From Candidatus Altimarinota bacterium (GTDB lineage Bacteria > Patescibacteriota > Gracilibacteria > BD1-5 > UBA2023), in NCBI GenBank assembly GCA_031423995.1, contig JANPGO010000060.1:1-43047 (forward strand): a stretch of DNA of 43,047 nucleotides, given 5' to 3'. The notes below the pieces were generated by a model. The model worked only from the letters and a program-made list of their open reading frames with translations, ran no database searches and was not told the origin of the DNA. The position numbers were made by a program, and so were the translations under genes. The first letter of the stretch is position 1. Every line of letters starts with the position of its first letter. Positions 15,688-41,770 of the stretch are shown piece by piece.

Positions 15688-15786
15688 ATGAGGAAAAACT
15701 TGCTTTTTCCCGTTTTTCTATATCATTTGCAGAAAGAAACACCTCTTGTATTCTTCACTTTTCATTTACTTCTTCACTTTTTCCCT

Positions 15787-16224: not shown

Positions 16225-16239
16225 TTTCAGAAAATAATA

Positions 16240-16602: not shown

Positions 16603-16603
16603 C

Positions 16604-17671: not shown

Positions 17672-17754
17672 GTTTCAGTTTTTCCATATTTTTCATATAC
17701 TAACGGTGGCTTTTCTGTACTCATTTTATTTTGCTTCAATCTCAAAACTCAATA

Positions 17755-18117
17755 ATGAATCTCCGTCAAAAGCGTCTTGCAGACGCCATACGCAACTATG
17801 CAAGCGAATCGATACTCCTCTTCGAACAGATGCAACCCCATACTTTTGGGATTATTTCTGTCACGATGGTTGATATCAGTCCTGACTACTCCTATGCCGA
17901 TATCTATCTCTCTGCCCAATCTGATGAAAAAAAGCTTCCTCATTTTATCGCTCCAATAGCGCATGATATAGAACGATATATCGGGAAGACCTTCTCTTTG
18001 AGAAAGACTCCCCACATCCGATTCAAGCTCCAAAAAGAAGCATCAAAAGCAACAAATGTCCTAGAACTTATCAACACCCTTGACCACCAATATGGACTTT
18101 CTCAGATGGATTCGTAG
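17755..18117 (+). CDS. rbfA: Ribosome-binding factor A
   Basis: RQKRLADAIR, ISVTMVDISPDYSYADIYLS, LRKTPHIRF. Confidence 0.88.
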   Translation: MNLRQKRLADAIRNYASESILLFEQMQPHTFGIISVTMVDISPDYSYADIYLSAQSDEKKLPHFIAPIAHDIERYIGKTFSLRKTPHIRFKLQKEASKATNVLELINTLDHQYGLSQMDS

Positions 18118-19156
18118 CTTCTCGAAAAAATATAAAAATCGTGGATTTCAGACGGAAGTGAAGCGTGAAAGAGAACAAAAATATCTCTTTCGTGATACCT
18201 GACCCGTTCTCCAGACAAAACGATGAGGGATTTTTCGTGAAAAAAAACGTGCACTCAAGCCCTTCACGAACTTCTTCCAAGAGAGTATTCTCGATAAAAC
18301 TTCATCTTTTTTCGAAGATCAGAGACTTCTTTGATATATTGGAATTATCCTCATATTTCTCTGTGGATATATTTTCTTTTTCTCATCATACTTCCAGATA
18401 TCACCATCCAAAGTCCTTATAGGATGAGAAGAAGGAAATGAAGGAATCGATATCAATATTGCCTATCGTGCCATAGAGGATATCTATGGGAAGAACGTAT
18501 TTCTTTTTGACGAAAGTGCTGTTGCACTCAGTCTGAAAAGATACCAGAACAATATCGAAAAAGTGAGTATCGAACGACTCTACCCAAACTGACTCAAAAT
18601 CATACTCAAAAGCTTTCCTATTCTCTACAAGGCAAGTATTAGTAGTCGGATCAACAAGTACTGGTGACTCTCAGCGAATGGTGTGCTCGTACCCCTTGCG
18701 AAAGAAAAAATTGATTCTCTTCCTTCTTTTGAAATACATGCGAATCTGAGTGAGGATGAGCTTCTAGATTACAAAAATATCATCAGTGAGACCCGCCTTA
18801 CTGCAATGAACAAAGTGCTCGAAATCTTCAAACAAGAATGGACTGATATCCATCTCTGAAAATTTCGATACCTCACAGAAGAGAATGAATTCCATATTAG
18901 TCTCGAAAAAGGATGAAAGATTCTTTTTGCACTTCAAGATTTCTCAATTGATAGCACTAAGACAACCGTTGACTTGTATGCAAACCTCAAAAATCAGATC
19001 CTCACACTCAAAGCATATCTCAAAGAGAATCGTCCAGTACTTGAGAGTGATACACTCTCATATATCGATGTGCGTATTCCTGGAAAGATATTTCTCTGTC
19101 GAGTCAAAGATATTTGTGCGAAAAATCTCATTACCGTTTATTGAGAAAATTATTAA
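18092..19156 (+). CDS. FtsQ/DivIB-like POTRA-domain membrane protein (354 aa)
   Basis: Basic N-terminal tail, one TM ending FFSSYFQI, GKNVFLFD, IEKVSIERLYPNGLKI, C-terminal YIDVRIPGKIF. Confidence 0.75.
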
Positions 19157-19161
19157 TAATT

Positions 19162-19815
19162 TTGTTCACAGATTCTGATCTCAGTCACATCCTCAGTATA
19201 CTCGTAGAGCTCTATGGATGAAAGAAAATAGAGCTCAATTACGAAACGCCATTTCAGCTTCTCTGTGCTGTTATCCTCTCGGCACAAACAACTGATAAGC
19301 AAGTTAATCGAATTACACCACCATTTTTTGCACTGGTTCGGGAAGCATGAGATGTAGAAGATCTCTCTCTTGAAGCCATCGAGTCACATCTTCGATATGT
19401 GAATTTTTATCGAAATAAATCAAGATACATAAAGGAAACTGCTTCTCGTCTTGCCCGTGAATACAATGGATGCATTCCCAATGAACTCAAACTCTTGCAA
19501 ACTTTTCCAGGTATTGGCATCAAAACGGCCAAGGTAGTTCTCTCGGTCCTCTATGATATGCCGTATGTAGGTGTAGATACCCATATTCATCGTGTGATGA
19601 ATCGTCTTGGAATCGTCATGACAAAAACCCCAGAACAAACTGATAAAGCAATCGATGCGATCTTTTCTCAGGAACAGAAACGAGTACTTCATCATCCAAC
19701 AGTGCTTTTTTGACGGTATACCTGTACAGCGAGGAATCCAAAGTGTAGTACTTGCAAACTCAAAAAATGGTGTACATATTATCATGCACACCATAAGGAG
19801 AAGACTGAAGACTAG
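19162..19815 (+). CDS. nth: Endonuclease III
   Basis: PFQLLCAVILSAQTTD, PGIGIKTA, VDTHIHRV, CTARNPKCSTCKLKKWC [4Fe-4S] motif; TTG start. Confidence 0.95.
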
Positions 19816-22800: not shown

Positions 22801-25643
22801 TATCCATTATTGACAGCATATTGGAACTGATTTCCATTAATAATAACAGAGCCATGAATTGGTTGTGTAAAGCCAGAAAGAGACAAAGTCTGAGCTACAT
22901 ATGGACTATCTGGATCTGTATCATTGGCAAGGACATCGAAGTTGGTAAGTGCCCCTGTGACGGTCATAGAATCATTGACTGCAACAGGTGCATCATTCAC
23001 ACAGTTGACGACGATAGAAGCACTGACAGGATCTGCATAGTTACTATACTGATCATATGCTCGGTACATGAATGTATCTACACCACAGAAATTTGGATTC
23101 GGTATATAGGATGCCGTTCCAGAGATATCGATCGAGAGAGAGCCATTCGGTGGATTGACAAACTGATCAAAAAAGACCGTATCACCAGGATTGTAGTCGA
23201 CTCCAGAAAGTGTTCCAATAATGAGAGGATCGTCCTCGTTTCCAGAGAAGCTCACTGGAAATACCACTGGTGGAGTATTCGTCGTCGTCACATCTACTTG
23301 GTTGATTCGTGAGCCGATCTCGTTCTGCGTGTAGAGATAGGTTGTTGACGTTGCGCCAGTAGGTGGCTCGAAATATATATCTCAGATATTTGAAGCAGGA
23401 ATATTCACGGATCCTGTAACAGTCGTATATGCAAGATTTGTCTGAGTTGAGCCGGTAGCAATCCATGACACATGTGCAAGTGTACCGCTCGGAATAGAAC
23501 CAGAGTCAATTGTCATAGAAACGGTTGGAACCGTCACAAGGTTGGGACTGTTATTCCAGAGAGCAAGACTTGCTGAATGAGCAGGCAGAGAGAGAGAAAG
23601 TGTTGGCCATCCAGTCGTTGCATTCGAAGTATCTACATACTGTGCACAAGGCACTCCTGAGGGACAAGACTGAGAGATTGATGTGCTTCCAGTATTCACG
23701 AGAACGAGCACTTCATTCACATTTGTATTCTTTTGGACGATATTTTTGCGACGGATACTCATCTCATCGATTTCTAGAGGAATATTTTGATTCGAGATTT
23801 CGAGTGCAAACTGTGCATCAGTCGCTGTCGTATTCGCATAAATATAGTATAAAAATGAACGACCAGTACTCATAGAATATGTTTCTGCATTACTATCAGA
23901 GTAGAGTGTAGTTTGGTATCATGCCCTATGGAATGATCATTTTATATTCAGACTTCCTGTCACTGACGATTTCAGGTATCCTGATACTTCATAAACTTGT
24001 CCACCCGTAATAGAAAGTACTGAATTGTTTGTTATATACATGTGACTCGGGGTGCTATCCTGAGGAGCAATCATCATAGATGATCAGCTGTATGATCAAC
24101 TTACTTTTTGTGTAAGAGTTGGAGCGAGTCATGTAGATGTACTGGGAGTCCATCCGGAAACATCAGTCTCAAAGCTCGGATTCGTGAGGAGATTCGCTGT
24201 CACATATGAACCTGTATTCGTATATGGCTTGTATCCGAAAGATTGGAACACATTTGCACTCGGATCAAATGAGGTAATACTTGATTTCGTCGCATATTCC
24301 ATACTTTCTCATCAGAATTTTATACTTCTGATATACGAAGTATCTGGCTTATAGAGTGTGACAAAATTATTCCCAATTGCAGTGATGAGTGAGGCAGTTC
24401 CTGTTCCTGGAGTTTCATCTCGCATCTCGATATATGGATATTCTACGTTGCGTTGGAAGAGAGTATTACTATTCATACTAACATTCGCAACAGTTCCTGG
24501 AGTATTCTGTATCACTAAGATTGAGTTTCTTGGAGCGTTGAGGATAGTATTTGAGTTGATAGCAGTATTTGATGAGTCAATGAGATGAATACCATTATTT
24601 CAAACAAGTGAAGGTATATACTTGATAATATTAGAACTGATATTTACTGAGTCGACTGATGAGAGCCATATGCCATCAGCGCTTGAGTACTCTATGTAAT
24701 TGTTTATGATAGTGGAATTGTAAATTGTTCCTGTATTGTAATTTTGAATCACTCAACAAAGATTGACTGTATTGCCAGCTATACAAGGGAATCAGCCATC
24801 TGGACTATAAAAAATATTATTTTGGATGGTTGTATTTGGACTCATAGCAATAGCAGAATAAAGTGCTCCTCCAAATTTATAAGGAAAAGTATTGCTCTGA
24901 ATAAGATTAATCCCGGTTCATGTCATAAAAATTCCGTAATAATTATATTGAATTATATTATTTTGGATGGTTGAATTACTATTATTGATATTTATTGCAT
25001 CATGAATACGATCATCGAAATTATTATTATCCACAATAACGCTCGTAGAGCTCGTAGAACGAATCCCCGAAATACTATGCGATGAGACTCAGCTAAAGCT
25101 ATTCCCCGAAATAGTAATAGTATCTGTAGAAATGATACGAAGTAAGTCAGTGAGTGTATTCCCACTAAAGCTAAATTGGCTGTTGGTTACATTGATATTA
25201 TTTGAATTATTGACTACTCCCGCACTTCATGAACTCGAGAGGAGTTTTAGGTTGTTAATATTGACGAAATTAGCACTAGAAATACTCATATTCTCAATCT
25301 GAGGTCTATTTGTTGTAGTACATCATGTTCCATAAGAATTATATGTGATAGGTGAACCAAAAATACCTGACTCGAATGAATCAAGCGTTCCTGTCCATGA
25401 TTCTCCACAGAGAAATGATACTGTATCTCCCTGAGAAAAAGTCTGACCATTTACAAATGCAACTGATCGCCAAGGAGTTGCTGGTGAGAGTCAATCATTG
25501 GTATCATTCCCAAGCGTTGCATCGACATAGTATTGCGTCGATGCTGCAAACGTATACTGTATTGTTGGTGCGAGCGTATTTGAGAGAAATGCTGAGAATA
25601 CCAGAGAAGCGAGTATTCGGTAGAATATATTTGTATGTGTCAT
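19812..25643 (-). CDS. Giant secreted/surface protein (~1943 aa): beta-helix, CBM-like region, ~10 cadherin-like/tandem-95 Ig repeats
   Basis: Track fragments 19812-24515 share one frame; signal-like N-terminus, [23 protein letters not shown] opening, Asn-rich strands, ten N-x-[AP]-P-[VIF]-type repeats with YTPxxxYxGxDSF. Confidence 0.88.
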
Positions 25644-25716
25644 ACAAGGAAATTAAAAAGTGTCCTATTGATTAGAACACAATTTGTAATTTTTTGCAAG
25701 AAATGTACTTGACAGA

Positions 25717-26259
25717 TTAAAAATCTGTATCATTTATTGTCTTAATTCCATAGATCACATAGTCTGCCGGGGTGAGTTTTTCTACATTAATTCATGCCTT
25801 CTGACAGACAAGAGCAAAATAATTGGCGGGAAGGGAATCGAGATTCACCATCCGTGGAAGAATGATGGCAAGTTTTCCAAGGTTCTGAGAAAGAAAAATA
25901 ATGCCTTCCTCTCGAGTATTAAGCTCATCGAGTGTACGCAGGACTCGGCGATCTTGCGCTGTGAATCGATCGACTCGGATATGTATATCTGAGAGCTTCT
26001 CAGGATTCTGGATTTCGAGAGAAAATCTCTCATCCTTGAGGCAGAGAAGGGTATTATCGATACACTCATAGAGTGTATTCTCCTTCTTGCATTGGATCCT
26101 CCCACTCGAGGCAATCACTTTTCCTTCGTAGTAGAGCGTGACAAAAACTGACATTTTTGTCTTCGTATGTTCGAGGAGGGAAGTATCAATATCCGAAAGT
26201 GTGATGATGCGTTTTTCTCGGAGATAGATTTCGAGCGTTTTTTGTACGAGTTCGTGCAT
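25717..26259 (-). CDS. AMMECR1-domain protein
   Basis: SVFVTLYYEGKVIASSG, DERF, EGII, AIILP, CQKAGI. Confidence 0.8.
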
Positions 26260-26265
26260 AGAATT

Positions 26266-27033
26266 TTATTTATGGAATTGTGTTAGAATCGCTGTCGCCT
26301 CCTTCTCCAGTTCTTTCTCATCCATCTCGATCCGAGCAAAGATCGACCCAATCGGATCATATCCAGTCACGGTATAGCTCTGATAGTAGGCATAGCTTAT
26401 ACCATGAGATACAAGTGCACCGACCGTCTGAGCGATGATGACGAGCCCAAGAAGGAGAAAAAGAGCATTCGATGAACTCGAGAGCAAACTATAGGCAAGT
26501 GCCGCGATGATCGACGAGAAAAGAAAGCTCGCTATACTTCCATAGAGGATGAGGAGCGCATATCGATACTGCGCGATAATCCCGATAATGAGCTGAAGTG
26601 CGAAGGTATTCACGAGTACATGGAGAGCAAATGCGAGAAGCACAATAGATGGCTCGGGAAAAATGCTCGTCAGGATGAGATATACTGGTGCAAAGAAAAT
26701 ATAGAGAACCAGTGACATGATAGCAACCTGAGATATCGAGGTTCGACCACGAGTATAGATATCAGGAAATATCCGTGAAAGGAGGAAATAGTAGAGGAGA
26801 TTCCCCGCTGAGAGTCAGAAAAACGTGATCATCGCAAGGAGAATCGGTGAGGCTCCACTCTCGAGAGAAAATTTCCCGATCGAGAGATATGATGCAAGGA
26901 GGATAATAACCCCAGATACAACAGAGATAACAAATGCTGATATAACAGTCATTCCCACTCCTATAGCATCGTACTTGGGTGGAGTGAGATAGTCTTCTGC
27001 AGAGTTACTCATGGGTGTGTCGATATCAGGCAT
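26266..27033 (-). CDS. Multi-pass membrane protein (255 aa)
   Basis: Two in-frame fragments joined by TGA; about 7 hydrophobic segments. Confidence 0.75.
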
Positions 27034-27583
27034 AGTAGGCAAGGATGATAAATGCAACTCCAATAGAGATGAATATATCTGCAAAGTTCAGGATTGCAAA
27101 ATATTTCACTGCAATGAAGTCGACCACGTGTCCTACAAAGATGCGTTCATAGGCATGTGACAGGGCTCATGCGAGGATCAGAATATATCCGATATCAAGA
27201 AGTTTCGATTTTTTCGAGAAATCGACTCGTAAATACTGATAGAGGAGCCCTCCGATCAAGAAGAGCGTAACTAACTGGAGAAAGATTCAACGGACAGGGA
27301 GGGAGAATGCAACTCAGGAATTGTATGAGAGCTGGAATCCGAGATACGCTCCCAGAATCGGCGAATAAGAATCTTTGTAAACTTGATCATAAAAATCAGC
27401 TCCAGTTCGTACGTCTTGCGAACAGGATCATATGAGTCTTCCATCTCATAATCCATCAGGAACGAGATACGGAGATGAAGCATGGCAATATTGCTCCCAA
27501 GCAATATGATCGAAATAATACTTCGATCCCATGTCGAGACCAATACATACAAGAAATATGCAAATAAGGGTAATTATGCGCAT
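27005..27583 (-). CDS. lspA: Lipoprotein signal peptidase II
   Basis: LDMGSK, YNSGVAFS, GALSHAYERIFVGHVVDFI, LNFADIFISIG. Confidence 0.88.
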
Positions 27584-27987
27584 TACATGAAGTATTTATA
27601 TGTCTGGAACATTACGAGAGCAATAATAACAGTCAACACTGTTCCCCATGTTGTATCGATCGCAACCATATTCCAACTCCACCCCCTCATCACACTCATC
27701 GAGGTGAGTTCATAGGTCATATAGGCTCAGAATCCGAAAAGAGCAGACTTCTCGATAACTTGCATGAGAGAAGCTTTTGACTCAACTCCTGGAATGACAA
27801 CCAGAAGGAGAAGCACGAGTATATAGAGTAAGTAGAAAGCAATTGCAGCAAGGAAGTTCATATCTGTATTGAGATATGTGGGAATATACTTCCGAAATGT
27901 CGGCAGGATCACGAAATAGATCATGACGCCATCGAGAACGAGAAGTGTCACGATTCACGAGATGTAGGAGAGAAGGGGAGCGAGCAT
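27583..27987 (-). CDS. DUF2177-family membrane protein
   Basis: LLVLDG, AAIAFYLLY, ALFGFGAYMTYELT, WSWNMVAIDTTWG. Confidence 0.85.
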
Positions 27988-27998
27988 GGGAGAAAAGA

Positions 27999-28325
27999 TT
28001 AATGGTGAATTGATAGTTGTGAATTATTTTGTATCCAGTTTTCATATTTCTCATTTGCACTTACTTCGGCAAGTCGGATAATACACGGAGTATTGTATTT
28101 ATGAGACGACTCGATCATGGATTTCACACTTTTCCAGTTCTCTGTTCGAGTCTTGTAGATCGTGACGATCTCATCATTTTTCGTGAGTCTCCCTTCCCAC
28201 CAGTACATACTCTCGATGGGGAAGAAATTCGCACAAGCAATGAGATGAGCATTCAGGAGATCAGCAGTGATCCTGATCGCTTCAGGTTTCGATGGATGTG
28301 TCACGTAGAGAAGGAGGAAGGGCAT
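27999..28325 (-). CDS. cutA: Divalent-cation tolerance protein CutA
   Basis: LYVTHPS..EA, LIACAN, SMYWWEG, KT, HKYNTPCI. Confidence 0.92.
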   Translation of the reverse strand: MPFLLLYVTHPSKPEAIRITADLLNAHLIACANFFPIESMYWWEGRLTKNDEIVTIYKTRTENWKSVKSMIESSHKYNTPCIIRLAEVSANEKYENWIQNNSQLSIHH

Positions 28326-28326
28326 A

Positions 28327-28938
28327 TTATTTCTGGTTATGAAATATCCAAGTAATTTTATCAAGCGCATCTGGATAGGTGAGTTCTATGATTTTCCTGA
28401 TTTGTGACTCCACGTCAAGAAAATAGGGATCAAGAAAGTTCACGATGCGATCAGCTTTTTCTCCGAACTTTCAACTATAGAAAAATATTTCTTCTTCAGG
28501 AAAATATCCCAGCCTCCAGAGATACGTCGCCGCTGCAAGTATAGGACACGAGTATTCTATGCCACTCGGGAGATATCTACAGAGTATGAATTCCATTTCT
28601 GATGCATACCTCTCGGTACTCACCTGTAGCCATATACCCTTCGAGTTCTCACGAAATGAAGCATTTTTCTTGTCAATCTTCTTCAGAAGCTTCTCTGCTA
28701 TAATGGAGAATGATTTTTCAGAGTATACATTGTCTGGCTTGATCTGAAGTCGATCAATCCAAGAATGTATAGTTAACGTATTGATGGAAGTGTCGTAGAG
28801 GTCATCTACAAGTACTCCGAGAGAAACTCTGTCCTTATTAGCAAAGTAGGTAATCAATTCTTTCGATGAATTCACTGAAGCAATAATATCATTTGGATTC
28901 AGATTCGGCGTGATATGTGCATATTCTATATGAATCAT
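28327..28938 (-). CDS. Hypothetical protein (203 aa)
   Basis: Open through TGA 28471 to TAA 28327; HIEYAH, VLVDD and YSCPILAAATYLWRLG motifs, family not recognised. Confidence 0.7.
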
Positions 28939-28944
28939 ATGATA

Positions 28945-29337
28945 TTAATGGTTAGTACTAGATTCCTTCTCGAGTCTTTCTTTCTGCATTTTTTTCACTG
29001 CATACCAATCCCCGTTATTCGAACCATCGCCATTGAGTCGCTCAGAGAATTTGGTCCAGCATCGTTCGAATACTTTTGCTTTCGAGATTTTCCCTTCATG
29101 TTCGAGATTCTCGAGGAGACAGATATAGTCCCAGAATATATCTCCGAGTTCATCTTCGAGAAAGACTCGATCTCATGACTTGAGCTCCGCTTTCATTTCT
29201 CGTATCTCATCCTCGATTCACCGAACGAATGTCTCACTTCCCTCATAGAATTCGCTATATCCAGAGTCTCCGTTTTTCATGAGCTCTGGAATTCGTGCTT
29301 CTGCGAGAATGATGATTTTTTGGATGGTGGGAAGCAT
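28945..29337 (-). CDS. MazG-like nucleotide pyrophosphohydrolase
   Basis: IEDEIREMKAEL...LEDELGDIFW, then VFERCWTKFSER...W. Confidence 0.82.
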
Positions 29338-29402
29338 GTATTGGATGGTAATAGTTTCCGTCGTCCTGAGTGAAATGTCATTTCGAGCGAATCCATGGGT
29401 TT

Positions 29403-29771
29403 CTGTCATTCCTGCGTATGCAGGAATCCAGGGTATTATTGGGTTATTTCGTTGAATAAATCATTCCATTCAGGATTATTTGCTTCTATTTTATTGAGTT
29501 TATATTCTCGTTTCCATTTTTTCATCCTCTTTTCAGTAGTAATTGCATCATATATATTCTGAAAAGATTCATACCATACAAGTATATTCACGTTATATCT
29601 TTTTGTAAATCATTCATTCAATTTCTCTTTATGTTCTAGTATTCTCCGAATCAAGTTATCTGTCACTCCGATATAGAGTGTTCCATTTCTCTGACTTGCG
29701 AGTATGTACACATAGTATGTATTCATAGGAATGCGTTAATGACTGGATTCCTGCATACGCAGGAATGACAG
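29403..29771. mobile_element. Minimal GIY-YIG element bounded by perfect 29-bp inverted repeats
   Basis: CTGTCATTCCTGCGTATGCAGGAATCCAG(29403-29431) and its exact reverse complement (29743-29771); each copy is itself a hairpin. Confidence 0.8.
29436..29726 (-). CDS. Small GIY-YIG nuclease (96 aa)
   Basis: [30 protein letters not shown]...GFTKRY...[17 protein letters not shown]...NPEWNDL; missing from the ORF track because of one TGA. Confidence 0.93.
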
Positions 29772-29776
29772 GCAAG

Positions 29777-30976
29777 TTACAGAAACACTCTTTTTGCCTT
29801 CTTTTTTCCCATTTCTATTAAAATAAATTCATTTCATTCAGGACGAATCATGAACTTGGGATCAGTTACTGTCTCTCAATTAATACGAACACTTCATCAA
29901 TGTAATGCATTTCTGGCATCTCACATAGTTCAACAAAATCCCATATGGCATAGTAAGTTAACTATTGGAGTTCATGTAAATGGAAGAATTCCTCCTCCCA
30001 TATCTCTGTATAGACTGTATTCAAATATTTCCACATTTGATATATCATTCGCATCATATAGCTTCCCATGATACATCGTCACGATGCGTTGTGCGAGTTC
30101 TTTTTTGAGGACATTCGGATGTTCACCTCATTCGAGACGCTTCTTGATGACTTCAACTTCCTCGAGGGTGGCATCAGTCGCGAGTTCGAAATACTTCACG
30201 ATGAGATCATCAGAAATATTGATGAGTTTCTGGTACATACTCTGCGGAGCCTCATCGATGGCGACGGTATTTGGACTCGTTTTCGACATCTTCTTGCCAT
30301 CAGAACCGACAAGGAGATCGAAGGTCATGATATCCTGCTTCGGGAGCCTATGTGCGTCCATGAGCGTACGACCAGCGAGGAGATTGAAGTACTGATCATT
30401 GCCGCCAAGTTCGACATCACAGGCACCGTATTTCTTCGCGATGGCAACAGAATCATATCCCTGCATGATCGGGTAGAGGAATTCCTGGAGAGATATACGG
30501 ATACCTCACTTGTAGCGCTTCGAGAAATTATCCCGATCGAGCATCTCGGCAACAGAGAAATTCTTGGCAAGCTCACCGACAGAGGCGAAGTTCACGGCAT
30601 CAAGTCATTCGCTATTCCAGTAGACCTCAGTCTTCTCGAGATCGAGGACCTTCGCGAACTTCTGGAGGAAGATCTCTGCATTGTGACGAGTCTCTTCTCG
30701 TCTGAGCATAGGACGCTCAGCATCTTTATCAGATGCATCACCGACCTGTGCGGTGGCATCACCTATGGTGAGGACGATCGTATGACCGAGGGATTGGAAT
30801 GCCTTCAGTTTCAGTATTGGCACCATATGCCCGATATGGACAATAGTTCCAGAGGGATCGATCCCGAATTTCACGACGAGCTTGTCACCGCGTTCGAGAC
30901 GCTTTGTTAGATTGACTTCATCGATGACGCGAGAAGTACCTTTATGGAGGAGATTGTGGATGGAAGAATTTGTCAT
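29777..30976 (-). CDS. tyrS: Tyrosine-tRNA ligase (399 aa)
   Basis: KFGIDPSG, HIGH, MQGYDS, GGNDQYFN, KMSKT, C-terminal S4 domain. Confidence 0.97.
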
Positions 30977-30998
30977 AGATTAATTTTTAAACAATTTT

Positions 30999-31610
30999 TT
31001 ACGGATAAAATCGATTCGATATTTTTGATTTTTCTGACTCAGTAGTTTCAGAAAAATATGCATAGACATTTCATTTTTCTACTGAGAATTTCTTGAAACA
31101 ACCACTTGGTCAATCACATTTGCTACTTAACTTTCTGAAATCAGAATAACTAAAAACTGGATAGTACTTCTTCGATTTCATATCTACAATTCACATATTT
31201 TCCCCTCATCATCCAAGAACTCATCACCAGATTAGGTAGTATCTCCTATCCCCAATCGAGGAAACATAAACAGAGATATTGTTAGTATCTTCATGTGAAA
31301 TATATGCTATTTTATTTGCTTTTTTGGATGAACATGAATACCGGAAAATAATATTATCAACTCATTGAATTCATGAAGAAGAGAGAGTGACGCTGTAGAA
31401 GAGTGTAGTATATTGCTTGAGAAATCAGTGAACTTTTGCCTCAGATCAACTCCACCTTGCTTCGAGAAGGTCGTAGTCAGGATGAGACTCTCAGAAAGTA
31501 TATTCTCCATCATTCATACGACAAGCCTCAGACTTGGAGAGTATTCTCTCAGAAGCAAAAAGTAAACCTGGGATTATAAAGAACAGTGGAATGAGAAAAA
31601 GTTTATTCAT
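30999..31610 (-). CDS. Secreted hypothetical protein (203 aa)
   Basis: Signal peptide MNKLFLIPLFFIIPGLLFA; open frame with many TGA. Confidence 0.7.
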
Positions 31611-31616
31611 ATAACT

Positions 31617-32336
31617 TTAGAAACTGATTGTTTTCTTTGATTTCTGGGACGGAGTGAGGACTATATTTCCTGCAGCATTCTCGGTGTAGGGTGTGTAACT
31701 GATATCGATATTGCGATTGCGGATCTTGAATCCATCGATTCTGATCGATGCACCGCCATGATCCTGGAAAGTACATTCGTCAAACAGGGAAGTGATGACT
31801 CCTCATTTATAGAGAAGAATCGATCTTTCGCAAGGGGAACCGATATTTCTCACGAGTGTGATGAGATTCCCATCACGCGTTGTTTGGAAGGTCAGTGCAT
31901 TATTGATGATCGCATGAGAGAATTTCTTTGTTCGAATATCGTAGATAGATATACGATTCCCATCGGTGGATGGACCGAGAAAGAGGATATACCGAGCACG
32001 AATGAGCTGTGTCTGAAGGACGAGACAGGAACGCAAGTATTCACGACCGATGATATCCTTGGTGCGGTTCGATGGGATAGTATTGTGAAGAGAATTGTAG
32101 CAATCTGGATCTTCATCAGGTCAGTGAGGGAGGAGCTCAGTCGCGAATTCCGAATTCACATAACTCTTGATGAGGATACGATTGTAGAAGAGATCCGTAT
32201 ATGTCTCAGTCTGAGCAATCTCTATGCCCTTCAGAAGTGGCTTCTTGTAGAGACGAAATTCATCGAATCCTCCTCCATCCGCATAGGAAATCATAGGAAG
32301 GATACAGAGGAGAGAGATGAGGAGAAATCGTTTCAT
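31617..32336 (-). CDS. Secreted hypothetical protein (239 aa)
   Basis: Signal peptide MKRFLLISLLCILPMISYA; in-frame fragments joined by two TGA. Confidence 0.75.
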
Positions 32337-32354
32337 AGGAATTTCGAGAGAGAA

Positions 32355-33020
32355 TTATCCAATCTTTTTGAGTTTTTTGGTCGTGAATTGGTATTGGTAT
32401 CGAGAATAGAATGACTCTTCTGTATCTGTATGATACTCTTCTATATCGAACTGGATGCGACCATCCTCGAGTGCCCTGTACATGCTCCGCCCGACACAGA
32501 GAGTACTACTCGATTTAGGTAGAGCGACCATTCGATCGAGACGCATGCGTGCAATCCTCGTCATATCGAGGAGATCATCAGGACCGGTCGTACAAGTATT
32601 GCGATCATAGCCGACAAGGGAATATGAGAGGTAGTTTCCGAGGATCCAGTTGAGCTTGCCAAAGGCAGTCCCTCCAAAAGAACGAACTTGAGGATAGAAC
32701 TTCACCTTCGACCGACTACAGTCATACGATGCGAGATAGGAACCATCATTTCTGAGGATCGCACCAGGGATTTCTGGATTATTTCCATTTTTTCGATAGG
32801 CATCGAGGGTTGCCTGATCTGGGAAGACATGGATGAAGTAGTAGAGAAACCCGTCTTTTTTCAGGAATTCATCGACTCTCACGAACTTTCCTGGCCAGAG
32901 AATATAGACTTCATTCTGATGAATTCCTTCGGGATAGGCACAGGCATCTTGCTTCGAGAGACTGCTTGCGAAGGAAAGGGTAGGGAAGATGATGCAGAGT
33001 AAAACAAGAATTATTTTCAT
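32355..33020 (-). CDS. Secreted hypothetical protein (221 aa)
   Basis: Signal peptide MKIILVLLCIIFPTLSFA; uninterrupted ORF. Confidence 0.8.
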   Translation of the reverse strand: MKIILVLLCIIFPTLSFASSLSKQDACAYPEGIHQNEVYILWPGKFVRVDEFLKKDGFLYYFIHVFPDQATLDAYRKNGNNPEIPGAILRNDGSYLASYDCSRSKVKFYPQVRSFGGTAFGKLNWILGNYLSYSLVGYDRNTCTTGPDDLLDMTRIARMRLDRMVALPKSSSTLCVGRSMYRALEDGRIQFDIEEYHTDTEESFYSRYQYQFTTKKLKKIG

Positions 33021-33064
33021 AAGAAGGTATCAGACAGTAGTTATCAGTTATCAGATTGGTATTT

Positions 33065-33709
33065 TTATCTATATAGTTCACGATATGGATTCACATAACG
33101 GATAAATGAGTTAAATACTGGCCTATTAAGACTAAAATATTCAGAATTATAGCTATAGTTCAATCAATTACTTAACATTAAATCAGTATGCTCAGAAAAA
33201 TCTTCAAATCTTGTAAATACTTTTGTGACTGACAACTTATCTCCTACATTAATTTTTATCATTTCATTATCGATTTTTATAGAACTTCATGTAAAAACAC
33301 AGTTGGGATCAAGTGAAAGATTTTGAAAATCAGATGGGTTTTCTACTTTAGAATGATAAAAATCATATAGACAATATGCTTCAATACGACTACTAAAACA
33401 CACAGAATCTTTATAACAAAAGCCATTTTTTATAACCTCAATATTTTCTCACTTGAGGATAGGAGTAAAGTAAGGTATATTAGTAATATATTTGTTAAAA
33501 GTAAATCAAACTACTGAAAGTAAAAAAATACTGATGATCCAAATTCTTGATGATTTTCATTTTAAAAAAAATCAAATAAATCAAAGGATAAGTATAGCAT
33601 ATCTATCTTCAAAAAAAATCAATATTTCACTCTCACTAACAGAAAATGAGAGACGGATTATTCCATATATTATAGCAATACGAAAAAAAATAAGTATTAT
33701 TGATTTCAT
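33065..33709 (-). CDS. AT-rich hypothetical membrane protein (214 aa)
   Basis: Open frame with UGA=Gly; about three N-terminal TM segments and a Cys-containing soluble domain. Confidence 0.65.
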
Positions 33710-33718
33710 TTTAATACT

Positions 33719-34339
33719 TTACAATACCTTATCAATAAGCCCATACTTCAGTGCATCCTCGGCAGTCATATAGTTATCACGGTCACAGTCCTTGCGGACG
33801 GTGTCGATTTTTTGTCCTGAATGCGTCGCGAGGATCTTATAGAGGACTTCTCCCGTCTTGATGATATGATCGGCGGCGATCTTGATATCGATTGCCTGTC
33901 CTTCCATGCCCCCAAGTGGCTGATGGATCATGATCTCTGAGTGTTTCAGTGCATAGCGCTTTCATTTTGCACCACCTGCGAGGATGATCGATCCCATCGA
34001 GGCTGCCAGCCCGACACAGACAGTGACGACATCAGGCTTTACGTGTTGCATCGTATCGTAGATCGCGAGCCCTGCTGTGACATGTCCTCCAGGAGAGTTC
34101 ACGTACATGGTGATAGGAGCCTTCGGATCGGACTTCTCGAGGTAGAGGAGCTGGGCGATGACGGTATTCGCGACATTGGAGTCGATCGCATCTCCGAGAA
34201 ATATAATACGGTCCTCGAGAAGTCTCGAGTAGATATCATAGGCTCGCTCCTGACCACCGACCTTATCGATAATGGTCGGGACGAGGAAGTCAGAGATAAT
34301 TTTCGATTTTTTTCCTTTTGTTTGGACTTTCTTGGACAT
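33719..34339 (-). CDS. clpP: ATP-dependent Clp protease proteolytic subunit
   Basis: [47 protein letters not shown]. Confidence 0.98.
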
Positions 34340-34404
34340 ATGTGAGATGAGGTTAGGAGACTTTTGTAGTATACGAGAATTTCTATTTTTGCAATCGAAA
34401 AATA

Positions 34405-34432
34405 TTGCAAATGGCCTATCAAATCCTATAAT
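34405..34432 (+). promoter_or_regulatory. sigma70 promoter, divergent from clpP
   Basis: TTGCAA-16 nt-TATAAT; the opposite-strand clpP promoter is TTGCAA(34394-34389)-15 nt-TATACT(34373-34368). Confidence 0.7.
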
Positions 34433-34468
34433 CTTTCTGCTTGTTTAATTTTCTTACTTTTTTCGATT

Positions 34469-35077
34469 ATGAAAAGTTTTTCTAGTTTCGTATTGATTGC
34501 CCTGTGTACTCTCGGGAGTATAGTACTCGTCTCCGCTGAGTGAGGAAATATGTGAGGCGGACAGATGGGAAGATGAATGCAGTCGGGTGAAAATGGTGGA
34601 TGAATGATGAAAAAGGGACAAAAAATGGAAGGTGGAATGATGGGAAGTGGAGCCGTACGACCAAAGATGGGAAGTGGCATGATGATGCCTCGTGATGGGA
34701 TGAAGGGAGGGAAGTCTCAGTCTGGGACAACTGTTCTCACCTCTGAGCAACTCACGTGTCTGCGAACTGCAGTTGCGAAGAGAGAATCAGCACTCATGGG
34801 AGAGGTCACAATGATGAATAGCACTATCAGTTCTGCGTTCATGACTCGTGCAACTGCACTCGACAGTGCCTACCAGGTATCTGACAAAGAAGCTCGAAAG
34901 ACTTCCGTCGATACAGCTTGGTCGATATTCAAATCCAGTACTGATATAGCAAGAAAGACTGGTCAGGATACACAGAAATCTACGTGGGATACGTTCAAGA
35001 CAGATACAAAAGCATGTAATGTCTGAGGGGCTGATACTGATGGCAATAAACCGATGATGATGGAAATGGCTCAATAA
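34469..35077 (+). CDS. Secreted Met/Gly-rich protein with helical C-terminal domain (202 aa)
   Basis: Signal peptide, GGMM low-complexity tract, helical domain bounded by two Cys (LTCLRTAVAKRE...FKTDTKAC). Confidence 0.8.
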
Positions 35078-35089
35078 GGAGTAAATTCG

Positions 35090-35118
35090 AAAAAAGTCTA
35101 CTTTTGTAGACTTTTTTT
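35090..35118. terminator. Intrinsic terminator
   Basis: AAAAAAGTCTAC-TTTT-GTAGACTTTTTT. Confidence 0.8.
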
Positions 35119-35208
35119 ATTGATAATCTGCTCCACGATTCGGCTGTTGCAAATAATCAACAAATTTATATACTAAGAATTGTTTTAAACATTCTAATTC
35201 TTTTAACT

Positions 35209-35703
35209 ATGAAAAACAGAATTTTTTCAGTATTTTTTATACTAAATTTAGTACTAATAGCATTTTCATTCATGACAATCAATGGTTATGCAACGACAGA
35301 AAGTAAATCAATAGAAAAAAATGGAAATTCCATGAAATCAAAAACATCTCTAGGTACTAAAAAATTTATGTCATTGGATTTATATCTACAAAATAAGGAA
35401 ATAGCAGAAATTCTTGATTGTGGTGCTACACGGAAAGTTACATATCAAGTACCTAGAACCATGTCGCCCATACACGTATCGTTAAAAATACTTTTCGAAA
35501 AGGAACTCGCTCGTTATGGTACGTATAAGTCAGTGATAGTTTCAAAGGGTATTGCTCGGGTGTATCTAAAGAAATTTTATAATCCAGCTCTGAGTAGTTG
35601 TGAAAGTAGCCACCTCGTCTCAGTAATAGAAGATACCCTTACTCAATATAAGAGTGTTCAGTCCATTGAACTCTATTCCCCAAATGGACGTATACAATTT
35701 TAA
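35209..35703 (+). CDS. Secreted GerMN-like domain protein
   Basis: Signal peptide; IARVYL...LSSCESSHLVSVIEDTLTQYKSVQSIEL; own promoter TTGCAA-16 nt-TATACT at 35147-35174. Confidence 0.7.
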   Translation: MKNRIFSVFFILNLVLIAFSFMTINGYATTESKSIEKNGNSMKSKTSLGTKKFMSLDLYLQNKEIAEILDCGATRKVTYQVPRTMSPIHVSLKILFEKELARYGTYKSVIVSKGIARVYLKKFYNPALSSCESSHLVSVIEDTLTQYKSVQSIELYSPNGRIQF

Positions 35704-35762
35704 GAAAGAGAAACTTTTGTAATGTAATATTGATAACATATAACTTTTATTTCTTATATACT

Positions 35763-37304
35763 ATGTCCCTCCTCACAGATATTATCACTCACTATACTTT
35801 TTCTGGAAAATCATTTCCCATCGGTCTCGGTATGGAGAAATGATCTGTCCTTCCAGGAGCGATTGTCTCACTTCCACTCTCCACGATGAATCGTCATGGA
35901 CTCATCGCTGGTGCGACCGGAACCGGGAAGACGAAGACACTCCAGAAGATGATCGAATCCCTCTCGGTCAATGGTGTCCCAACAGTCGTGATGGATATAA
36001 AGGGAGATGTATCTGGGTTGGCACTTCCATGAGAAATGAATGAAAAAATCAGTGAGAGACTCTCGATCCTCGGGAAATCAGACTGGAAATGAACAGGATT
36101 CCCGACGGAATTCTATACCCTCACTGGCGCCCAGTGAGTGAAACTCAGGGCAACGGTCAGTGAATTTTGAGCCGTTCTCTTTGCTCGGCTTCTCGAGCTC
36201 AATAATACGCAGGAAAGTGTGATTGCGCTGATATTCCAGTATTGTGATGATACTGCTCTCCTCCTCATTGATCTGGAAGATGTAAAAAAGGTCCTACAAT
36301 ATCTCTCAAATGAAGGAAAGGAGGAAATCGAAAAAGAATATGGCATGATCTCAACGTCGACCGTTGGAACGATCATGCGAAAGGTGATCGAACTCGAGTC
36401 ACAAGGGGCAGCAATATTTTTCGGTGAACCGTCATTCGAAGTTGTTGACCTCATGCGAACCGATGAGAGTGGAAATGGTTATGTGAATATCATCCGTCTC
36501 ATGGACATGATGACTCGACCGAAGCTCTTTTCGACCTTCATCCTCTCGCTCCTCTCTGAAATCTATAATACTCTCCCTGAAGTTGGGGATATCGAGAAAC
36601 CGAAGCTCATCCTCTTCATCGATGAAGCACACCTGATCTTCGAGAATGCTTCATCCTCGCTTCTTAGAGAAATCGAGATGATCATCAAGCTGATTCGATC
36701 GAAGTGAGTGGGGATATATTTCTGTACACAGAATCCGATCGATATCCCAGCAAATATCCTCGCTCAGCTCGGATTGAAGGTACAGCATGCACTCCGTGCC
36801 TTCACCGCGAAGGACCACGAAACCATCAAACGTGCGAGTGAGAACTTCCCAACCACCGAGTATTATGATGTCGCCCATGATCTCACGACACTCGGGATCG
36901 GAGAAGCCTTCATCACGGCTCTCGATGAAAAGGGTATCCCAACCCCCCTCGTTCACACGATGATCGCACCCCCTGAGTCTCGTATGGGAATCCTCACGGA
37001 GAGTGAACTCATGGGTCTCACGAGTATCTCCCCGCTCATCTCGAAATATAATATCATCCTCGACCGCGAAAGTGCCCGAGAAATTCTCGAAAGGAGAGTA
37101 TCAGAAAAAATAGCACAAAATACTCCATCGATGATGGAAGGTATGATGAGTGGCACAACGGGGAAAATCGCAAAAAATGTCGGAGGCACCCTTGCTGCCG
37201 AGCTCGGTCGTACACTCGGAAGGTCTCTCGGTGGACGCACGGGTGGAACGATCGGTGCACAGATCGCGAGAGGACTCCTCGGATCTATTTTTGGGGGAAG
37301 ATAG
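35763..37304 (+). CDS. HerA-like / DUF853 (YjgR-type) ATPase
   Basis: [62 protein letters not shown]. Confidence 0.93.
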
Positions 37305-37347
37305 TGGGTGACATATCTCGACATTACTGTTTTAGGTTGCAGAAAAA

Positions 37348-37648
37348 TGTCATTTCGAACAAAATTTTAGGGTAAATTTTCGTGAGAAATCTTCCTTCTA
37401 ATGTTTCATAAATATGTCTGAAGAGATGTACATCTACATTCTTACGAACCACTCTCACAATACCTTCTATACTGTTGTCACGAACAATCTCAAAAGAAGA
37501 ATCCTTGAGCATCGACAAAAACTACCGTCGAGAAAAGAAAATTTATCTCATAGAATCGATAAATCTATTTTGGAAAGATCTTTCTGAAAATTGGTACAAT
37601 TAAAAGGAAGATTTTTCCTTCTCACTTCGCATAGAAGTCGAAATAACT
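37348..37648 (+). pseudogene. Decayed family A GIY-YIG element (nuclease remnant 37414-37603)
   Basis: MYIYILTNHSHNTFYTVVTNNLKRRILEHRQK, then an internal deletion/frameshift to RREKKIYLIESINLFWKDL; flanked by TGTCATTTCGA..GAAATCTTCCTT and AAGGAAGATTT..TCGAAATAAC. Confidence 0.85.
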
Positions 37649-37710
37649 TTCTTATAAGTTATTTATAGAATACCGTATTTTTATCATTTGGTTTCTAATC
37701 ATAACTTCTT

Positions 37711-38807: not shown

Positions 38808-39932
38808 ATGCAAGTCGGAATCGTCGGTCTCCCCAATGTTGGTAAATCCACACTTTTTAATGCGCTCACCAAATCCTATGCTGCCGAGGCAGCGAACTTC
38901 CCATTCTGTACGATAGAACCAAATGTCGGAATCGTGAATGTGAACGACGAACGTCTTGAGCAAATCCGTGTGGTCGTGAATGGGGCGAAGATCATCCCAG
39001 CGACTGTCGAATTCGTCGATATCGCAGGGCTCGTCGAGTGAGCAAGTAAGGGTGAATGACTCGGAAATAAATTCCTCTCCCATATCCGTAGTGTCGATGC
39101 TATCCTTCAGGTCGTCCGAGCCTTCGATGACTCCACTGTCCACCATGTAAGTGGCTCAGTCGATCCCAAGCGTGATATCGAGATTATCAATCTCGAACTG
39201 ATATTCGCTGACCTCGAGACTCTCGATAAGCGCATCGGTGACAATCAGAAAAAGGTACGAGCCGGGGATAAGGAAGCAAAATCTCGGGAAGATATCTACA
39301 ATAGACTCAAGGCACACCTCGAATCAGGAGCAATCGCCTCCCTCATGGAAATGACCGACGATGAGAAACTCGCCGTCGCCGACCTCCATCTCCTCACCAA
39401 TAAGCCATTCATCTATGCCGTGAATGTGACAGAAGATTGGTTCTCGAGCCCCCCTGAAAAGGGGGGTAGCGAAGCTGGGGGGTTCAATGACACTGAACTC
39501 AGAGCAATTACTGGCATTTCAGACTCCAAAATCCCGGTCCTTCCCGTAAGTGCGAAGATCGAGATGGATATGCTCGAATTCTCCGAAGAGGATAAGAAGA
39601 TGTTCCTCGCAGATATGGGGATCGACTTCAATCCGATGGATACGATTATCCGGACTTGCTATGATCTCCTCGGACTCCAGTACTACTTCACCGCAGGGGA
39701 GATCGAGGTGCGAGCCTGGACGATCCATCAGGGAGATACAGCTCCTGTCGCTGCAGGAGTGATCCATACGGACTTCCAGAAGAAATTCATCAAGGCAGAA
39801 ACCGTGAACTGGAAGAATCTCGTCGAATTCGGAGGATGGTCAGGAGCACGTGAGAAGGGAAAAGTACGCATGGAAGGGAAGGAATATATCGTCGCGGATG
39901 GGGATGTGATGTTGTTTAAATTTGGGGGGTAA
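38808..39932 (+). CDS. ychF: Obg-family ATPase YchF
   Basis: [48 protein letters not shown] (two TGA), [20 protein letters not shown]. Confidence 0.98.
39449..39484. repeat. Family B half-element, in frame in ychF
   Basis: CCCCCCTGAAAAGGGGGG-AGCGAAGCT-GGGGGGTT; encodes SPPEKGGS, identical to the peptide in the LepA insertion. Confidence 0.82.
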
Positions 39933-40335: not shown

Positions 40336-40528
40336 GATGACATATAAACTTTTGGCCTAATCCTTGTCACTCCTTTAAAATTTCATATTTTGTATATTCT
40401 TTATACTCTTTTTCAAAAAAAGATATACAAAAATCCAATAAAAAAAAATCCCCTTCACGTTCCGTTGGCTTGAAAAGATTTTTGCATTTTATCGAAACGA
40501 GATATAATCAGTACATAATTTCAAGAAT

Positions 40529-40729: not shown

Positions 40730-41116
40730 ATGTTCATTATTGACTCAAGTATTTTTTGTGCATGCTTCTTAGATGAGGATACGAACCATGAAAGGGCGAA
40801 AGTACTCTTGTGAGAAATCGAGGAACGGATATTGGTTCCATATATCGTCTTGAGTGAGGTGCTGACTGTATTGACCTATAAACATTCGAAAGATCGTGCA
40901 AATGAATTTGCAGATTTTATACTCTCAGATAATCGATTCATTTTGATAGATGCAGACATGACGAGTGAGGTATATTTCTGGAAATCGATCGATAATAATC
41001 TCTCCTATATCGATATTGTCCTGACCTATGTTGCCCTTCGAAACGATGCCACTCTCCTCACCTTTGACGATGCAATGATAAAGTTCTATCAAAAAATCCG
41101 AGAAAATAAATCGTAA
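40730..41116 (+). CDS. PIN-domain (VapC-like) ribonuclease toxin
   Basis: MFIIDSS...DTNHERA, VLSEV, LSYID, LLTFD acidic PIN motifs; 128 aa. Confidence 0.88.
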
Positions 41117-41195
41117 AAAAATCCCTTTCACGATACGTTGGCTTGAAAAGTTATTATAAGAATAACTGTATTATATCTGCTTACCAATTACAATC

Positions 41196-41477
41196 ATGCA
41201 CTTACAAGATTCACAAATACTCATTCTATTTTTTGTATTCCACATTATTCTTTTTAGTAGTTTTTCTGTCCTAAAACTCAATATTCTTACTTGGAGAATC
41301 ATAACGATTATTCTTGTTTTAGTAGAACCGTACCTCATTCTCTGGCTGATGGGATGATGAGGTCCAGATAATATCTGAGCATGAATCTGAATTATGATTT
41401 TATATATTGTAGTCTGATTTCCGATTTATATACTTTCAGGAATAGTCTATCTCATCTGAAAGCAGCTTCAAAAATAA
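41196..41477 (+). CDS. Small three-TM membrane protein (93 aa)
   Basis: Open with UGA=Gly; stop codon abuts the third repeat. Confidence 0.65.
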
Positions 41478-41770
41478 AAAAATCCCCTTCACGTTTCGTT
41501 GGCTTGAAAAGATTTTTTAGCCTGTGAGGGGATTTTTAATTCATACCTTTTCTTCACGTTGGTATGAGACGAGGTCTACTGCACTTAGGTTAGTTTTACG
41601 AGGATAACCAGCTTTTGTATTGATTTGATATTCCTTTATGGAAGATCGGTTTGTATAGAAAGCATAGTGCTTTGTATGTGTATTTATTTTTTTCTGGAAC
41701 TTCGATCGGTTTAAGCGACCAAATCTCAGAAGGCGGCGAGTGAAGTTCACCAGTGCTCGTGAAGTAGACA
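41476..41770 (-). ncRNA. Candidate structured ncRNA (~295 nt); alternatively an 84-aa basic ORF at 41517-41771
   Basis: TTGACA(41804-41799)-17 nt-TAAGAT(41781-41776) promoter; nested long-range stems; terminal hairpin 41478-41537 followed by a U run. Confidence 0.4.

Follow-up and report, generated by a model that had tools for sequence, protein, structure and literature searches.

The subject of this analysis is a 369-bp unit at positions 29403–29771 of a 43,047-nucleotide (nt) contig from Candidatus Altimarinota bacterium (GenBank assembly GCA_031423995.1, contig JANPGO010000060.1; the whole contig is called the window), in which a gene for a small GIY-YIG nuclease, ssn, lies between two inverted hairpins. 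By homology of its protein to characterised Ssn nucleases the unit belongs to the Ssn nuclease/SRM hairpin system (SRM, Ssn-related motif). This kind of element is known; new here is that the unit of gene plus hairpins, and hairpin pairs without a gene (doublets), behave as discrete mobile cassettes. In all likelihood Ssn-SRM cassettes are discrete mobile units and the gene-less pairs are non-autonomous derivatives of them, a reading that draws on family identity, oriented association of gene and hairpins, homology bounded by the cassette ends, empty sites and purifying selection on the gene. The source genome (G000) is a 1.44-Mb, 121-contig assembly, 87% complete, with the window as contig C60; related genomes and their contigs are numbered in the same way.

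Nuclease and hairpin ends of the intact cassette

The intact unit had been proposed in a first-pass annotation made from the letters of the window, and it is present as described: inverted repeats of 29 bp, perfect, stand at both ends of the 369 bp and enclose the ssn gene (29436–29726 including the stop codon, minus strand), which encodes a single-domain GIY-YIG nuclease of 96 amino acids (aa) and contains one TGA codon read as Gly. The gene-upstream (5′) SRM hairpin end (29743–29771, minus strand) reads CTGTCATTCCTGC-loop-GCAGGAATCCAG on its strand, and the gene-downstream (3′) end (29403–29431, plus strand) is its perfect inverted copy; each arm is a hairpin made up of GTC, a ATTCCTGC stem, a 4-nt loop, GCAGGAAT and C. 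In a Pfam search the protein matched PF01541 (GIY-YIG) over residues 4–76 (E=3.4e-15), with no second significant family. NCBIfam held no specific family for it (TIGR01453 reached 19.9 bits against a cut-off of 56), the nearest protein by sequence in the PDB was the distant UPF0213 protein 1ywl (E=0.005), and phage records gave no match. Rfam was searched with the window at gathering thresholds and with five composite-hairpin loci of the genome at E≤1, without a match in either case.

The gene is open only when its single in-frame TGA is taken as a residue, and this TGA aligns to a conserved Gly. Across the window, long open reading frames (ORFs) were likewise obtained only with TGA as a sense codon (table 25), those under table 11 being short; the reading of TGA as a residue throughout the window (for example at 19812–25643 and 29780–30976), and on conserved Gly in ssn genes, fits code 25. 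Two other ssn genes of the genome, on contigs C20 and C88, have TGATGA where the remaining copies have K/D/H-W, the second TGA occupying a position that is usually Trp.

The Ssn nuclease/SRM system, with its NTS and dRS3 hairpins, was described by Chenal et al. (2025, Nat Commun 16:2388, PMC11893778); what is said of it here and below refers to the part of that paper that was accessible. NTS, CGTCATTCCCGCGMAVGCGGGAATCYRG, is an oriented extension of the Neisseria repeat dRS3, and SRM is the wider class of Ssn-related motifs. The gene ssnA encodes a 94-aa GIY-YIG protein (CDD cd10448), and its homologues have an SRM nearby in 71% and on both sides in 42% of cases. Four purified Ssn homologues bound the hairpin only as single-stranded DNA (ssDNA) and cut it a few nucleotides upstream, whereas double-stranded DNA was not cut and RNA was not bound; binding depended most on the C after the palindrome, and cleavage on the three bases before the palindrome. 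In N. meningitidis the system modulates transformation, and 2% of NTS lie inside genes. The NTS-ssnA-NTS arrangement was likened to an insertion sequence (IS), to IS200/IS605 and to REP/RAYT, domestication was proposed in the Discussion of that paper, and mobility is put forward there as a hypothesis (PMC11893778); in the literature from 2023 on, no later work on Ssn mobility was found. The first-pass annotation had offered the nuclease and its repeats as a candidate new system with the nuclease as mobiliser. Its claim of novelty does not hold, the nuclease-repeat pairing, the biochemistry and the IS/RAYT-REP analogy having been published in 2025; because that analogy is drawn in the paper, the mobiliser proposal equals a published hypothesis, and the link of enzyme and repeat is a published fact for relatives (PMC11893778).

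The window protein and a homologue from N. gonorrhoeae are identical at 54 of 89 residues (61%, E=1e-38). This homologue, the only one in two N. gonorrhoeae chromosomes listed as plasmids in PLSDB, is encoded by a gene with canonical NTS copies on its flanks, and we infer that it is the orthologue of N. meningitidis SsnA; in strain sequence NZ_CP119142.1 no in-frame ATG stands ahead of its conserved VYILAS start. The catalytic Tyr, Tyr and Glu of meningococcal SsnA are Y6, Y17 and E64 (PMC11893778). Y7, Y18 and E65 of the window protein align to the gonococcal protein; Y18 and E65 are found in all seven paralogues of the source genome, and the first catalytic Tyr in six, the C88 copy having Trp. 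Between the window arm, CTGTCATTCCTGCGTATGCAGGAATCCAG, and the published NTS consensus, 23 of 28 positions are the same; of the five mismatches, two compensate each other as a stem pair and two fall in the loop. The bases reported as critical, GTC before and C after the palindrome, are the invariant bases of the repeats in the source genome.

Cassettes and empty sites in related genomes

Movement as discrete cassettes, on an evolutionary scale, is shown among other findings by homology bounded by the cassette at unrelated sites and by empty sites in relatives. The ssn cassette of contig C112 (about 380 bp) matched G008:C2, G002:C54 and G002:C50 at 79–85%; the homology begins at TTGTCAT and stops at ATGACAAAA, and the flanks are unrelated except between G008:C2 and G002:C54. 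These two loci are the same site, and cassettes of the C112 type therefore occupy three distinct sites. Terminal inverted repeats TTTTGTCAT/ATGACAAAA are present on the cassettes. Empty sites at orthologous positions, which the first-pass annotation had suggested looking for, were found at four loci. Where G000 and G003 carry the C83 cassette, G008 reads GGATAATCAT|ACTATTCG, an empty site at base level in which a gene stops 1 nt from the start of the next gene.

The intact window cassette stands after the stop codon of tyrS (tyrosyl-tRNA synthetase; 29777–30976, minus strand), with a MazG-family gene (28945–29337, minus strand) as the neighbour beyond it. In G008 and G011 the site between these two genes is empty, mazG starting 6–11 nt past the tyrS stop; in G002, of the same genus, the tyrS 3′ site holds a different, TTTCGA-type cassette, and G000 has the ATTCCTGC-type cassette together with a leftover short end of a second, TTTCGA-type cassette (29376–29399, plus strand). 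This comparison covered 18 relatives, 14 of them uninformative (other neighbours), and locus L103 (G001) was excluded, its contig ending inside tyrS. The herA-patatin spacer measures 406 nt with its cassette remnant in the window, compared with 50 nt in G002; G013 has a different herA neighbour and was uninformative. The doublet on C107 is present in G000 and G003 and is not found in G001 or G002, and copies at two unrelated G003 loci share just the TTTTGTCATTC...GAGAATGACAAA block, in which the hairpins are conserved while the spacer has diverged. Presence/absence polymorphism, whose lack had been named as grounds for rejecting mobility, was seen among related genomes at the C83, tyrS, herA and C107 loci.

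Strong ssn matches (E<1e-25) numbered 0 to 7 per genome among 30 relatives, with none in 18 of the 30; G004 has whole-doublet matches yet no strong ssn gene. For one orthologous ssn gene pair (G000 vs G003) dN/dS was 0.10. The C112 site was also tried as a base-precise empty site and rejected: G008 and G004 are without the cassette, but their spacers differ otherwise too. The C89 site corresponds in G002 to 882 nt of sequence.

Two cassettes showed further peculiarities. In G003 the 28 nt that end the C83 cassette recur at 12 loci with 100% identity, several of these loci being contig starts, a pattern suggestive of expansion to high copy number in this species. Around the C88 cassette, about 51 nt of a uvrB-like 3′ end (94% identical) lie on both sides of the ssn unit (G000:C88:838–904 and 1362–1429), and its left end is doubled as well; doubled ends were also found at C20 and G003:C80.

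Paralogues and repeats in the source genome

G000 contains seven full-length ssn paralogues, which are 45–65% identical to the window copy and 80% identical in the closest pair, and in addition a remnant. The seven proteins measure 95–98 aa, one being cut by a contig end, and Tyr18, Arg28, His32 and Glu65 are invariant in all of them. An oriented YGTCAT-hairpin-ATC end stands upstream of all eight copies; the inverse downstream end is clear in six, weak in C89 and unseen in C15, where a contig end cuts it. Stem sequences vary from copy to copy, in C83 even between its own two ends, and pairing is maintained.

Genome-wide, 67 compact GTCAT-hairpin-ATC units were counted against 12–21 in ten dinucleotide shuffles. 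Among 1097 AT...AT hairpins (Watson-Crick stem of at least 7), 58 have GTC before them and 53 of these 58 have C after; beyond the unit, sequence is conserved for no more than about four pyrimidines 5′ of GTCAT, in keeping with a cut a few nt 5′ of the hairpin, and in 42 of 53 units ATC is followed by T. A search of G000 with the degenerate SRM pattern of PMC11893778 gave 15 sites, compared with 1–5 in 10 shuffles. A looser census (stem of at least 6, loops to about 70 nt) returned 175 units against 125–169 in Markov controls; it did not discriminate, and stricter rules were adopted. Fifteen convergent pairs were present among the filtered units (13 gene-less, mostly with 2–25 nt between the ends, and 2 gene-carrying) as against 1 divergent pair. 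One copy (C63:5832–5855) carries ATTCCCGCGAAGGCGGGAAT, the Neisseria core.

Five composite SRMs of 69 nt were also seen (C86:2698–2766, C44:18312–18380, C75:3806–3874, C53:15459–15527 and C12:12903–12971), in which the outer ATTCCTGC/GCAGGAAT stem is invariant and two inner hairpins take the place of the loop, one of them covarying (GATGC/GCATC, GGAC/GTCC, CTCAC/GTGA). A second, weaker GIY-YIG family is represented by G000:C62:8041–8274, with E values of about 1e-9 to 1e-16 against positions 3–84 of the ssn profile; having one locus in most of the 30 relatives, ssn-free ones included, it probably constitutes a family of its own with stable inheritance.

Association of gene and hairpins across phyla

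A scan of one genome per species gave 589 ssn relatives, of which the best 80 were analysed; these are 48–69% identical and come from Omnitrophota, Pseudomonadota, Bacteroidota, Planctomycetota, several candidate phyla and others. Oriented ends were sought within 120 nt of each gene. A correctly oriented end was found upstream at 49 of the 80 loci, downstream at 53, on both sides at 42 and on at least one side at 60, whereas wrongly oriented ends occurred at 8 loci upstream and 10 downstream, and distal control windows contained an oriented end in 0 of 77 and 0 of 68 cases. As the first-pass annotation held, the hairpins are the partners of the small GIY-YIG protein, to judge from all eight copies here and 60 of the best 80 relatives; a general lack of such flanks among homologues, which would have told against the pairing, was not what these relatives showed. 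Of 42 units, 28 had the same stem class at both ends; shuffling gave 6.2 on average and 13 at most.

Co-phylogeny of nuclease and repeat type, a check suggested at the same time, was run on 66 nucleases (98 columns). The resulting tree recovered three paralogue pairs of G000 (support 99, 93 and 82) but was poorly resolved, 4 of 63 inner branches being starred, and phyla were strongly intermixed on it (26 changes on 66 rows). Hairpin class took 36 changes on this tree, compared with 42–50 when labels were shuffled; since kin share hairpin labels, this result favours co-evolution only weakly.

Decayed, gene-less and single ends in the window

The decayed unit annotated at 37348–37648 has the layout ascribed to it. 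Its left end (37348–37395, plus strand) consists of TGTCATTTCGA, an inner hairpin and GAGAAATCTTCC, and its right end (37606–37648, minus strand) of GGAAGATTTTTC, a hairpin and TCGAAATAAC, the terminus being GTTAT, not GTCAT. In the decayed ssn ORF (37414–37668, plus strand) only the N-terminal ~36 residues are recognisable as GIY-YIG, PF01541 matching residues 5–41 only (E=1.4e-4, 22.5 bits against a cut-off of 22.6). Solo ends had been placed near 8170–8212 and 29376–29391, and ends were found there, at about 8166–8211 and at 29376–29399; the former, a single TTTCGA-type end on the minus strand, lies upstream of a dihydroorotate dehydrogenase gene and may have a degenerate partner at about 8135–8160, judged by eye only. 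Exact copies of TGTCATTTCGA occur four times in the window, at 8201 (minus), 15254 (minus), 29376 (plus) and 37348 (plus); the chance expectation of 2.16 was computed allowing up to one mismatch, whereas all four matches are exact.

A gene-less inverted doublet, GTCAT...ATGAC, with TTTCGA-type ends about 20 nt apart, occupies 15142–15263 inside a coding sequence, as had been claimed; it lies in frame in the ATPase domain of an ABC exporter (gene at 13771–15687, plus strand). When the exporter was aligned to solved ABC structures, query residues 311–450/507–636 paired with chain residues 363–506/517–649, a gap that leaves about 46 extra residues precisely at the position of the doublet. The loop was compared in ten orthologues and paralogues: G006 is without an insertion, five others have other inserts, and the doublet of the window is common to G000, G008 (another genus) and G002, with inner hairpins that vary. 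A paralogue on contig C105 of G000 carries a different doublet in the same loop, and related strains from a second study hold the same doublet as the window, which is present in the public sequencing runs X2 and X4. The varied inserts across orthologues and paralogues mark the loop as a permissive hot spot; that such repeats give rise to in-frame protein insertions, as the first-pass annotation supposed, is supported for this exporter.

Mechanism and alternative explanations

GIY-YIG enzymes are hydrolases and form no covalent DNA intermediate; RAYT/HUH-like chemistry therefore cannot apply to them, and transposase-type strand transfer is unlikely. In the reading that we favour, each ssn gene encodes a nuclease of ~96 aa framed by its inverted cognate motif, YYYY-GTC-[AT..stem-loop..AT]-C, and gene plus both ends constitute one mobile cassette of ~370–380 bp, gene-less pairs measuring ~60–120 bp; tight gene junctions and a permissive protein loop are the places where both forms come, go and replace one another. 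By analogy with characterised homologues, the protein would bind the hairpin in ssDNA and cut a few bases 5′ of GTCAT, and since those relatives cut ssDNA 5′ of the motif, an inverted pair would be cut at both outer boundaries, once per strand. The boundaries so predicted coincide with the points at which homology between genomes ends. It is possible, if somewhat less than probable, that the spread is the work of the nuclease itself, most likely then by way of a nick at a hairpin extruded in ssDNA during replication or DNA uptake, which may provoke host recombination or repair and so the copying of the cassette between hairpin-bearing sites. Doubled ends and the replacement at the tyrS site fit such a nick-and-repair process. 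In its widest form the proposal is likewise tentative: Ssn-SRM cassettes may form a true class of mobile elements, autonomous and non-autonomous, that encode a hydrolytic ssDNA endonuclease as their sole function and neither transposase, integrase nor reverse transcriptase; the nuclease would nick hairpins at the outer boundaries of the cassette and leave the copying to host repair, and several specificity types would reside together in one genome, replace one another at the same site and seed in-frame protein insertions.

A number of points weigh against the Ssn-SRM cassette reading or against the attribution of movement to the nuclease. The published degenerate SRM pattern had no match in the window, whose arms miss it because a T:A stem pair sits where the pattern requires V. 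In N. gonorrhoeae NZ_CP119142.1 (1881319–1882385) the NTS copies are directed away from the gene, whereas the ends in G000 (GTCAT> gene <ATGAC) and in most relatives are directed towards it. No target-site duplication was found at aligned junctions, and a flank duplication (51 nt, at C88) was seen in one of six cassettes. Contigs of related strains (four public runs from two studies, compared as contigs, not reads) gave no join across either element on 14500–34400, and no empty allele; they break at 29399, the repeat edge, and a joint 29214>29398 in run contigs has 30 letters on its shorter side, the content between being not known. All compared genomes are metagenome assemblies, which break at these repeats, and, short of a rooted species tree, gain of a cassette looks the same as its precise loss. 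No two paralogues exceed 80% identity and the spacers of doublet copies differ, so that nothing in G000 points to very recent bursts. Cassettes could be moved by homologous recombination between hairpins, with no part played by a nuclease, and the activity of the ssn proteins of G000 is predicted from homologues.

That the enzymes have a domesticated host function only, in ssDNA restriction or processing of incoming or replicating DNA as proposed for Neisseria transformation, with the hairpins as genomic recognition sites and with cassettes and doublets shuffled passively by homologous recombination and horizontal transfer, was considered unlikely, even though the published role in N. meningitidis is the modulation of transformation (PMC11893778). 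The strong purifying selection on the ssn gene (dN/dS 0.10) would suit such a function, and so would hairpins that are kept while doublet spacers diverge, as expected from selection on sites, the want of recent identical copies in G000, and the whole-doublet matches of G004 next to no strong ssn gene. However, at three unrelated sites the homology of cassettes ends exactly where the hairpins end, cassettes sit in gene junctions of 1–6 nt and copy number is very patchy among close relatives, features typical of selfish elements, and passive recombination requires a hairpin already at the target; a host function and mobility are in any case not exclusive. A homing-type spread, with ssn as a free-standing homing endonuclease gene, gene-less doublets as targets, repair from the occupied copy and hairpins as homology arms, is improbable. 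It would agree with the membership of the nuclease in the GIY-YIG superfamily, with doublets that have the architecture of the cassette, with the tyrS site, where one cassette type replaced another and an end was left behind, and with the doubled ends at C88, C20 and G003:C80; yet the protein has no DNA-binding domain past its 96-aa core, both recognition sites are intact in occupied sites, unlike in classical homing, phage records were without a match, and characterised homologues leave double-stranded DNA uncut (PMC11893778). As the only route it is further opposed by the C83 site of G008, which is empty and without any hairpin.

Mobilisation of the hairpins in trans by a conventional transposase (RAYT/IS200-type Y1 or IS110-type), with the GIY-YIG gene as a passenger, is very improbable. 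A Neisseria IS110-type recombinase is reported in the introduction of PMC11893778 to target dRS3, and G000 does have one Y1 transposase gene; however, this IS200-type gene (G000:C2:91–444, the sole PF01797 gene) has no GTCAT/ATGAC within 900 nt and bears other hairpins of its own, AAGACCC..GGGTCTT and CCACCCCC..GGGGGTGG, no IS110-type match was found in the 87%-complete genome, and the linkage of ssn gene and hairpins holds across phyla. Less credible still is the idea that the hairpins terminate transcription of ssn and neighbouring genes or regulate them and are not the ends of mobile elements. Stable hairpins do stand in intergenic spacers, and regulation was the first idea of the authors of the 2025 paper (PMC11893778), but the hairpins are inverted on the two sides of the gene, doublets lie within a coding sequence, no T-run follows the stem, and characterised Ssn does not bind RNA (PMC11893778). 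Discrete Ssn-SRM cassettes remain the best explanation.

Comparison with known systems

Within the Ssn/SRM system as described in the accessible part of PMC11893778, the units of G000 share the single-domain GIY-YIG protein of ~95 aa, the GTC-ATTCC..GGAAT-C signature, the motif on both flanks and the many extra genomic copies. Compared with that description they differ in having seven diverged paralogues and distinct hairpin classes in one 1.4-Mb code-25 genome and an in-frame doublet in a gene, and in the empty sites and cassette-bounded homology reported here. They resemble REPIN-RAYT and REP-BIME systems in having a single enzyme gene between inverted hairpin repeats, dispersed gene-less doublets and, by analogy with their homologues, a hairpin probably recognised in ssDNA; as in REPINs, the 13 gene-less convergent doublets, against 1 divergent, share the repeat that flanks the enzyme gene. 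By enzyme, membership in REPIN-RAYT was rejected, the flanked gene being a GIY-YIG gene and the sole PF01797 gene being without these repeats; unlike REPIN-RAYT, moreover, the enzyme of G000 is a hydrolytic GIY-YIG and not an HUH Y1 protein, so covalent strand transfer is not expected, there are several paralogues per genome, and the doublet copies are not near-identical swarms.

A GIY-YIG homing endonuclease of the I-TevI/Seg type was also rejected as an identity (96 aa only, TIGR01453 at 19.9 against 56 bits, no phage match). IS200/IS605 elements would share terminal hairpins recognised as ssDNA and the lack of target duplication, but they use a Y1 HUH transposase and their ends are not inverted copies. 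Of the two marks of MITE-like elements, terminal inverted repeats and a target-site duplication, the former are present on these units; no duplication was seen at the aligned junctions, and one of six cassettes has the 51-nt flank duplication. Neisseria dRS3/NIME repeats have the core geometry found in G000, ATTCCY-N8-RGGAAT, and the resemblance to dRS3 pointed out in the first-pass annotation is real; those repeats form arrays around surface-protein genes, whereas in G000 the repeats are cassette ends and short doublets. Rickettsia palindromic elements (RPE) are palindromic repeats that stand in frame in protein genes at permissive loops and are longer than SRMs; to our knowledge, no nuclease has been assigned to them.

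How hairpin repeats of the dRS3/NTS type multiply has been a question since their description, and the 2025 paper tied them to a nuclease (PMC11893778). The genomes compared here offer natural experiments on it: a ~380-bp cassette whose termini are sharp, sites that are empty at base level, doublets that lack the gene, a site that, depending on the genome, is vacant or carries either this cassette type or another, and seven nuclease-hairpin pairs in one cell. Nuclease-driven spread and a specificity code between nuclease and hairpin become directly testable, nuclease-hairpin pairs are of interest as tools for single-stranded DNA, and SRM-type repeats can lengthen proteins in frame.

Other repeats in the window and genome

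Several repeats of other kinds were seen. A 1943-aa ORF at 19812–25643 (minus strand) contains tandem repeat units of about 570 nt (families D1, D2 and D7). A 34-nt inverted pair at 1455–1488 and 16994–17027 represents a different palindromic repeat (CCCTCTC..GGGGTGAGG type); run contigs show loose ends and a replaced stretch at 16994–17089, and this repeat type looks polymorphic. A CCCCCC..GGGGGG hairpin family (667–692, 10938–10963 and 39446–39471) and a 50-nt repeat (40434–40483, 41107–41156 and 41468–41517) are unrelated to the SRM motif. Outside the window, the uvrB-like gene on contig C88 (G000:C88:373–620) has an in-frame insertion of ~80 aa that is missing in five relatives and includes a GGGGACAAA...TTTGTCCCC palindrome; ~140 nt of this insertion are multi-copy in all five relatives, and it represents a second, non-SRM kind of in-frame repeat.

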